Assembly (NCBI RefSeq): GCF_056712565.1
Contig: NZ_CM160072.1
DNA: 64,000 nucleotides
Direction: 5' to 3' (one strand)
The notes under the pieces are model-generated. The model made no database searches and was not told the origin of the DNA. It saw only the letters and a list, made by a program, of their open reading frames with translations. Positions 32,565 to 32,732 of this stretch are shown here, piece after piece. Each line of letters starts with the position of its first letter. Position 1 is the stretch's first letter. The position numbers and the translations under genes were made by a program.

Positions 32565-32623
32565 TTTTATTTCTCCCTGTCTTAATTATTAAAATAGTGT
32601 AACGCGATTATGTGGTTATGGGG

Positions 32624-32641
32624 GTAAACATTAAATAAACC
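32624..32641 (-). promoter_or_regulatory. PhoP box of the autoregulated phoPQ promoter
   Basis: Minus strand reads GGTTTA-tttaa-TGTTTA (canonical direct repeat) with CATAAT -10 about 12 nt downstream. Confidence 0.75.
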
Positions 32642-32732
32642 AGCGGGGAGGGGAGGTAAAGTGAAAAAACAAAAAGTGGATAATCTTAATAAGCAGGCCG
32701 GACAGCATCGCCATCCGGCACTGTTTTGAGGC

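Follow-up and report, generated by a model that had tools for sequence, protein, structure and literature searches.

Does the intergenic region between purB and phoP in the analysed stretch of 64,000 nucleotides (the window) carry the autoregulated phoPQ promoter in the form known from E. coli K-12? The initial annotation had recognised, in the interval 32565..32700, a GGTTTA-N5-TGTTTA repeat followed at about 12 nt by a CATAAT -10 element, and had assigned them to the autoregulated phoPQ promoter with the strand left unstated. These elements are indeed present; they lie on the minus strand and the distance between the box and CATAAT is exactly 12 nt. The interval corresponds to the purB-phoP intergenic region without its first 32 nt, and the promoter elements proper occupy 32641..32600. 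The assignment to phoPQ stands as well, since the elements are flanked by phoP, phoQ and purB and are base for base those of K-12.

The promoter is located directly upstream of the phoP-phoQ operon, in which the expected domains are present. The phoP coding sequence (31893..32564, minus strand, 223 aa) specifies a protein with response regulator receiver and Trans_reg_C domains, and that of phoQ (30433..31893, minus strand, 486 aa) overlaps the phoP stop codon by one base and specifies a protein with a PhoQ_Sensor domain. The upstream neighbour is purB (32733..34103, minus strand, 456 aa). The identities of these genes are confirmed by the Pfam domains and by RefSeq, which annotates them in a genome that matches 501 compared bases at 100% identity.

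Read on the minus strand, the PhoP box (GGTTTATTTAATGTTTA, 32641..32625) is a direct repeat of GGTTTA (32641..32636) and TGTTTA (32630..32625) separated by TTTAA (32635..32631). All 12 defined positions of (T/G)GTTTA-N5-(T/G)GTTTA are matched; the passage of PMC8355897 that describes the box presents it as a direct (T/G)GTTTA repeat with a 5-bp separation and attributes it to Kato et al. 1999. This single direct box has the same orientation as phoP. The 12 nt that separate it from the -10 form a spacer, CCCCCATAACCA (32613..32624, minus strand), whose length is conserved while its sequence is not. The P1 -10 hexamer CATAAT (32607..32612, minus strand) is identical to that of K-12 and is also the -10 of Salmonella phoP. 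It is followed by CGCGTT and then by an A at 32600 (minus strand), 7 nt past the -10 and at -36 from the ATG, which is the expected P1 start as mapped from K-12 onto identical sequence. Relative to this start, the box spans -41..-25 and covers the -35 position. It lies 60 nt before phoP, the ATG of which is found at 32564..32562 on the minus strand. The 36-nt phoP 5' leader (32565..32600, minus strand), with the Shine-Dalgarno sequence GGGAG at 32577..32573, is identical to that of K-12.

A sigma-70 consensus scan of 32400..32900 returned no complete two-hexamer promoter, which is consistent with a P1 that depends on an activator, and it did not locate P2. At 17 nt upstream of the -10 the hexamer, read by eye, is TTTAAT, with 3 of 6 matches to a -35. 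When the window was searched for a second PhoP box with one mismatch allowed, no further site was detected, and a permissive Rfam scan of 32200..32800 gave no RNA family match.

Comparison with the K-12 promoter, which the initial annotation had named as the check, showed that MG1655 (NC_000913.3) is identical from -105 to the phoP ATG. Over the whole interval 134 of 136 positions are identical. The two SNPs are both located upstream of the box, at 32677 (A; G in K-12) and 32670 (G; A in K-12), and a few further differences from K-12 are found just past the purB stop codon. E. coli K-12 phoPQ P1 and the window therefore have the same box, spacer, -10, start site, leader, Shine-Dalgarno sequence and gene neighbours; they differ in the two intergenic SNPs, in the changes past the purB stop codon and in one SNP inside phoP, in the -10 of the antisense RNA AsphoP. 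Both intergenic SNPs fall within 32642..32696 (minus strand), upstream of the box; published work locates P2 (and P3) in this region, which also contains a C-rich tract that is variable among E. coli strains.

According to the relevant part of PMC3536696, K-12 P1, mapped by Kato, Tanabe and Utsumi in 1999, is the proximal one of the promoters, under positive regulation by PhoP and with its start at -36. A third phoPQ promoter, P3, is mentioned in the same paper (PMC3536696), which also places the pairing region of the small RNA MicA at -15..+11 of phoP and that of GcvB around the Shine-Dalgarno sequence. In the window the MicA site maps to 32579..32554, and both the MicA and GcvB sites are unchanged with respect to K-12. 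Taken together, the sequence is almost certainly the phoPQ promoter P1, which would be activated by PhoP and would provide positive feedback for PhoQ/PhoP, its function being carried over from K-12 and Salmonella. As such it is already known, and it constitutes a valid positive control and not a discovery.

The position equivalent to K-12 AsphoP (b4843) is 32282..32625 on the plus strand, as mapped from K-12; in the K-12 annotation this RNA starts inside phoP and has its 3' end at the last base of the PhoP box. Its -10 element (32270..32275, plus strand) reads CGTAAT in the window versus CATAAT in K-12, owing to a SNP at 32271. The second base of the -10 hexamer is the most critical base in sigma-70 promoters. 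AsphoP is probably not made in the source strain, judging from this hexamer. The promoter could be as in K-12 and nevertheless give a different output, the SNPs of the P2 region and the damaged AsphoP -10 altering basal phoPQ expression or mRNA stability. Positions 32677 and 32670 do fall where the constitutive promoter or promoters are placed, the second base of the AsphoP -10 is G and not A, and in K-12 RNase III both degrades AsphoP and destabilises phoP mRNA (PMC9600491). However, AsphoP has no demonstrated function in K-12 (PMC9600491), and complete E. coli genomes carry the G allele more often than the K-12 allele (2,918 versus 1,871 identical records), so that K-12 represents the less common form. 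We consider a changed output of this kind unlikely, though it is the alternative that survives best.

The preferred reading, a PhoP-activated P1, agrees with the layout described in Salmonella, where phoP is preceded by one direct box with 12 nt to a CATAAT -10 and 7 nt from there to +1 (PMC3335776). The Salmonella promoter has been classified as architecture I, with class II activation predicted and the box overlapping the -35 (PMC3335776). The layout is shared with the window; the box in S. enterica subsp. arizonae (L070) is GGTTTATTAACTGTTTA. In contrast, the N5, the spacer and the leader of Salmonella phoP differ from those of the window, and the gene starts one codon earlier (ATGATGCGC). 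The other architecture I promoters of Salmonella (mgtA, slyB, pmrD, yrbL and orgB) share with phoPQ P1 the placement and orientation of the box with respect to the -10 and likewise lack a usable -35, but their downstream genes are different from phoPQ. In sequence, the window promoter has the features of the architecture I, class II group of PhoP-activated promoters, and binding of PhoP and induction at low Mg2+ would be carried over by identity. Enteric species have conserved the positive autoregulation of phoPQ, and deletion of the box impairs growth of Salmonella at low Mg2+ (PMC2650801). That study examined ten enteric species, and phoPQ and slyB were the only PhoP targets reported for every one of them (PMC2650801).

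In the corresponding mechanism, low Mg2+ or antimicrobial peptides would lead PhoQ to phosphorylate PhoP, and phospho-PhoP would bind the two GTTTA half-sites, one helical turn apart, standing in for a usable -35. By class II activation, RNA polymerase would then be brought to the CATAAT -10 and would start at A 32600, producing the 36-nt leader followed by phoP and phoQ. Basal phoPQ expression would come from the constitutive P2 further upstream, with the feedback of P1 on top of it, and the small RNAs MicA and GcvB would exert their repression on the leader. A different role for the same box can be conceived, in which PhoP would act there mainly as a roadblock or repressor of P2 transcription and not as an activator of P1: the box is downstream of the position where P2 is placed, so that PhoP bound there would stand in the way of transcription from P2. 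Such a role is very improbable, given that P1 is published as positively regulated by PhoP (PMC3536696), that deletion of the constitutive upstream promoter P2 of E. coli leaves the PhoP-P response of P1 intact (PMC3750022), that low-Mg2+ induction of phoPQ by P1 alone has been reported for K-12, and that the direct orientation and the 12-nt distance are typical of PhoP-activated class II promoters (PMC3335776).

Activation of P1 by PhoP being the reading retained, we examined how far its sequence is kept within E. coli. Of 5,426 complete E. coli genomes, 5,424 contain the 136-nt interval, which was counted as present if at least 80% of it was covered in one piece. The same number of genomes (5,424/5,426) contain the 56-nt P1 core (32650..32595), which is identical in 3,681 records and shows one or two base differences in 1,744. 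In an alignment of four sampled E. coli strain variants, E. albertii and one divergent representative labelled E. coli, changes were seen only in the C-rich tract or in the spacer and none in a half-site or in the -10.

Some individual E. coli records deviate from this arrangement. In the GTDB representative labelled E. coli SCPM-O-B-8794 (L040), the spacer between the box and the -10 has one C fewer and measures 11 nt; this is the sole perfect-box locus of the set with a spacing other than 12. In E. coli NZ_OY754834.1 the intergenic match begins about 20 nt upstream of the box and the P2 region is replaced. In addition, 11 copies of the purB-phoP region were found on E. coli records labelled as plasmids.

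The core region had been described as ordinary, and this is confirmed: positions 12400..52900 of the window are 99.988% identical to E. coli ATCC 11775. The same identity allowed a lambdoid prophage to be recognised beside icd (37240..38490, plus strand), about 4.5 kb from purB and extending from about 38600 to beyond 52900. Its gene content comprises an integrase (38604..39746, minus strand), an excisionase, bet/exo/gam, cI/cII-like regulators, replication proteins O and P and nin-region genes. We take this neighbourhood to be the same as that of the e14 site of K-12.

Two further features were considered between purB and the box. Just past the purB stop codon, a GC-rich hairpin with a weak T tract (32697..32719, minus strand; -20.8 kcal/mol, z -3.8) is conserved in K-12. 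It is probably the purB terminator or a REP-like element, its appearance being as much REP-like as terminator-like. An open reading frame of 27 codons on the minus strand, MAMLSGLLIKIIHFLFFHFTSPPRWFI (32714..32631), stretches from the purB hairpin and reaches into the box. We do not regard it as a gene, for it lacks a ribosome-binding site, an indel of one base disrupts its frame in O157:H7, conservation across genera is missing in this region and K-12 has no annotation there.

In order to follow the promoter beyond E. coli, phoP loci were drawn from species-representative genomes by means of a degenerate pattern for the PhoP N-terminus and the upstream DNA was examined. A perfect box was present in 45 of the 113 sequences with enough upstream DNA; both numbers include the window and two E. 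coli reference loci, which leaves 42 other perfect-box loci. In all but one of the perfect-box loci the box is 12 nt from a NANNNT hexamer, which is CATAAT or GATAAT in most of them, and it is positioned 59-63 nt before the ATG. A further 40 loci match 10-11 of the 12 box positions, mostly with the same spacing. When the loci were anchored on the box, the information content was 1.39 and 1.78 bits for the two half-sites, values that are inflated by the choice of loci on box score, and 1.31 bits for the -10. Values were low elsewhere: the N5 had 0.28 bits, the spacer 0.37 and the upstream sequence 0.22. Neither the -10 nor the two spacers entered into the selection, and the comparison is therefore independent as regards conservation of the -10. 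Across Enterobacteriaceae, the half-sites, the -10 and the 12-nt distance are kept, and the sequences of both spacers vary.

In the window itself, KGTTTA-N5-KGTTTA has one match over both strands of the 64 kb, for 0.02 expected from shuffles. A degenerate motif of 17 nt can arise randomly, and one match did occur in 2 of 100 shuffles of the window; but the idea that the box is such a chance match in an AT-rich intergenic region, devoid of a regulatory role, is the least credible of all and can be dismissed, since the distance from the box to a -10 is exactly 12 nt and phoP begins 60 nt downstream, the identical box of K-12 has a demonstrated function, and the half-sites are kept across genera while the N5 and the spacer drift.

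Several groups depart from the usual form of the P1 promoter. In Erwiniaceae (Pantoea, Erwinia and Mixta; L016, L026, L027, L056, L064, L078, L104 and others) the phoP box reads CGTTAA-N5-TGTTTA, with a degenerate upstream half-site, and the -10 is TATACT at 12 nt past TGTTTA, so that the spacing is kept. In Yersinia loci phoP is not directly preceded by a box, which agrees with the report that the autoregulated promoter of Yersinia precedes the upstream gene y1795 (PMC2650801). No recognisable box was seen at the usual place in Kluyvera genomosp. 3 (L049), Pluralibacter (L011 and L053) and Pseudocitrobacter (L019 and L028), and the same is true of Mangrovibacter (L065 and L110) and Intestinirhabdus (L090). 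The junction in L049 resembles the arm of the prophages described next. In L090, a perfect box with CATAAT 12 nt on is found 228 nt upstream of phoP, versus about 60 nt usually.

A distinct situation was encountered in nine species representatives of Citrobacter, Enterobacter and Lelliottia (L003, L012, L023, L025, L039, L060 and L100-L102), where similarity to the usual promoter starts only at the -10. A PhoP box was sought upstream in these nine loci and none was found within 0.6 to 14 kb, depending on the locus. In seven of the nine, the -10 is immediately preceded by a tyrosine integrase gene that is oriented towards phoP and whose 3' end is intact. The 429-aa product contains Arm-DNA-binding and Phage_integrase domains and shares about 50% identity with Rac IntR. 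L039 and L023 retain no more than a deleted or degraded piece of the integrase sequence, and in L060 a terminase and other phage genes are found behind the integrase.

Similar loci occur in IMG/VR, where at least 80 carry the phoP-targeting integrase (L127-L206). The integrase is directly followed by phoP in all 48 loci that reach far enough; none of these 48 has a PhoP box within 110 nt, and 46 have kept the -10. Two IMG/VR contigs carry both ends of the element. On the purB side of IMGVR_UViG_3300031151_000354, GGTTTAGTCAATGTTTA is followed by 12 nt, CATAATCAGCGTTAGACT and then phage DNA, and on its phoP side phage DNA is followed by ACATAATCAGCGTTAAACTATTCATAC and then phoP. In IMGVR_UViG_3300014641_000023 the shared core is the 20-bp sequence ACATAATCAGCGTTAAACTA, which extends from the -10 through the start site. 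The loci that hold this both-end and core evidence are L233 and L236/L187; the prophage ends of L233 are attL at 12738..12690 and attR at 125..78 (minus strand).

These sequences represent a prophage family that integrates into the core of P1 in Enterobacter, Citrobacter and Lelliottia. We infer that the attachment site would be the P1 -10, discriminator and start region, that integration would leave the PhoP box, together with one copy of the core, pointing into the prophage, and that phoPQ would keep its -10 with phage DNA replacing the box. With the PhoP box left pointing into the prophage and phoPQ devoid of a box, PhoP feedback on phoPQ may consequently be cut, and genes at the phage end may become PhoP-regulated. 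A search of a phage collection for a free phage with the phoP-targeting integrase gave best matches of about 50% identity (Rac-type IntR), hence no attP was at hand for comparison. A full-text literature search found no paper describing prophage integration into the phoP promoter.

The question arises whether the E. coli promoter core, from the -10 through the start, could also serve as attachment site for related phages, which would uncouple phoPQ from its feedback. Compared with the Enterobacter/Citrobacter/Lelliottia core, one base is deleted and one is substituted in the E. coli core (CATAATCGCGTTACACT versus CATAATCAGCGTTAAACT), and no promoter split at the core was found in the E. coli genomes of the collection. 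We regard such use of the E. coli core as quite improbable.

The promoter studied here sets the strength with which PhoQ/PhoP amplifies itself when faced with low magnesium and antimicrobial peptides, which is established biology. A textbook regulatory site was correctly recognised from the sequence alone, and the value of the window is that of a control. The prophage observation, a by-product located outside the window, may be worth more than the promoter control. In the genera concerned, a prophage-split promoter should remove PhoP feedback from phoPQ and place the genes at the phage end under PhoP control. More speculatively, the split could bear on PhoPQ-dependent traits that differ between strains, for instance the polymyxin heteroresistance of the Enterobacter cloacae complex.
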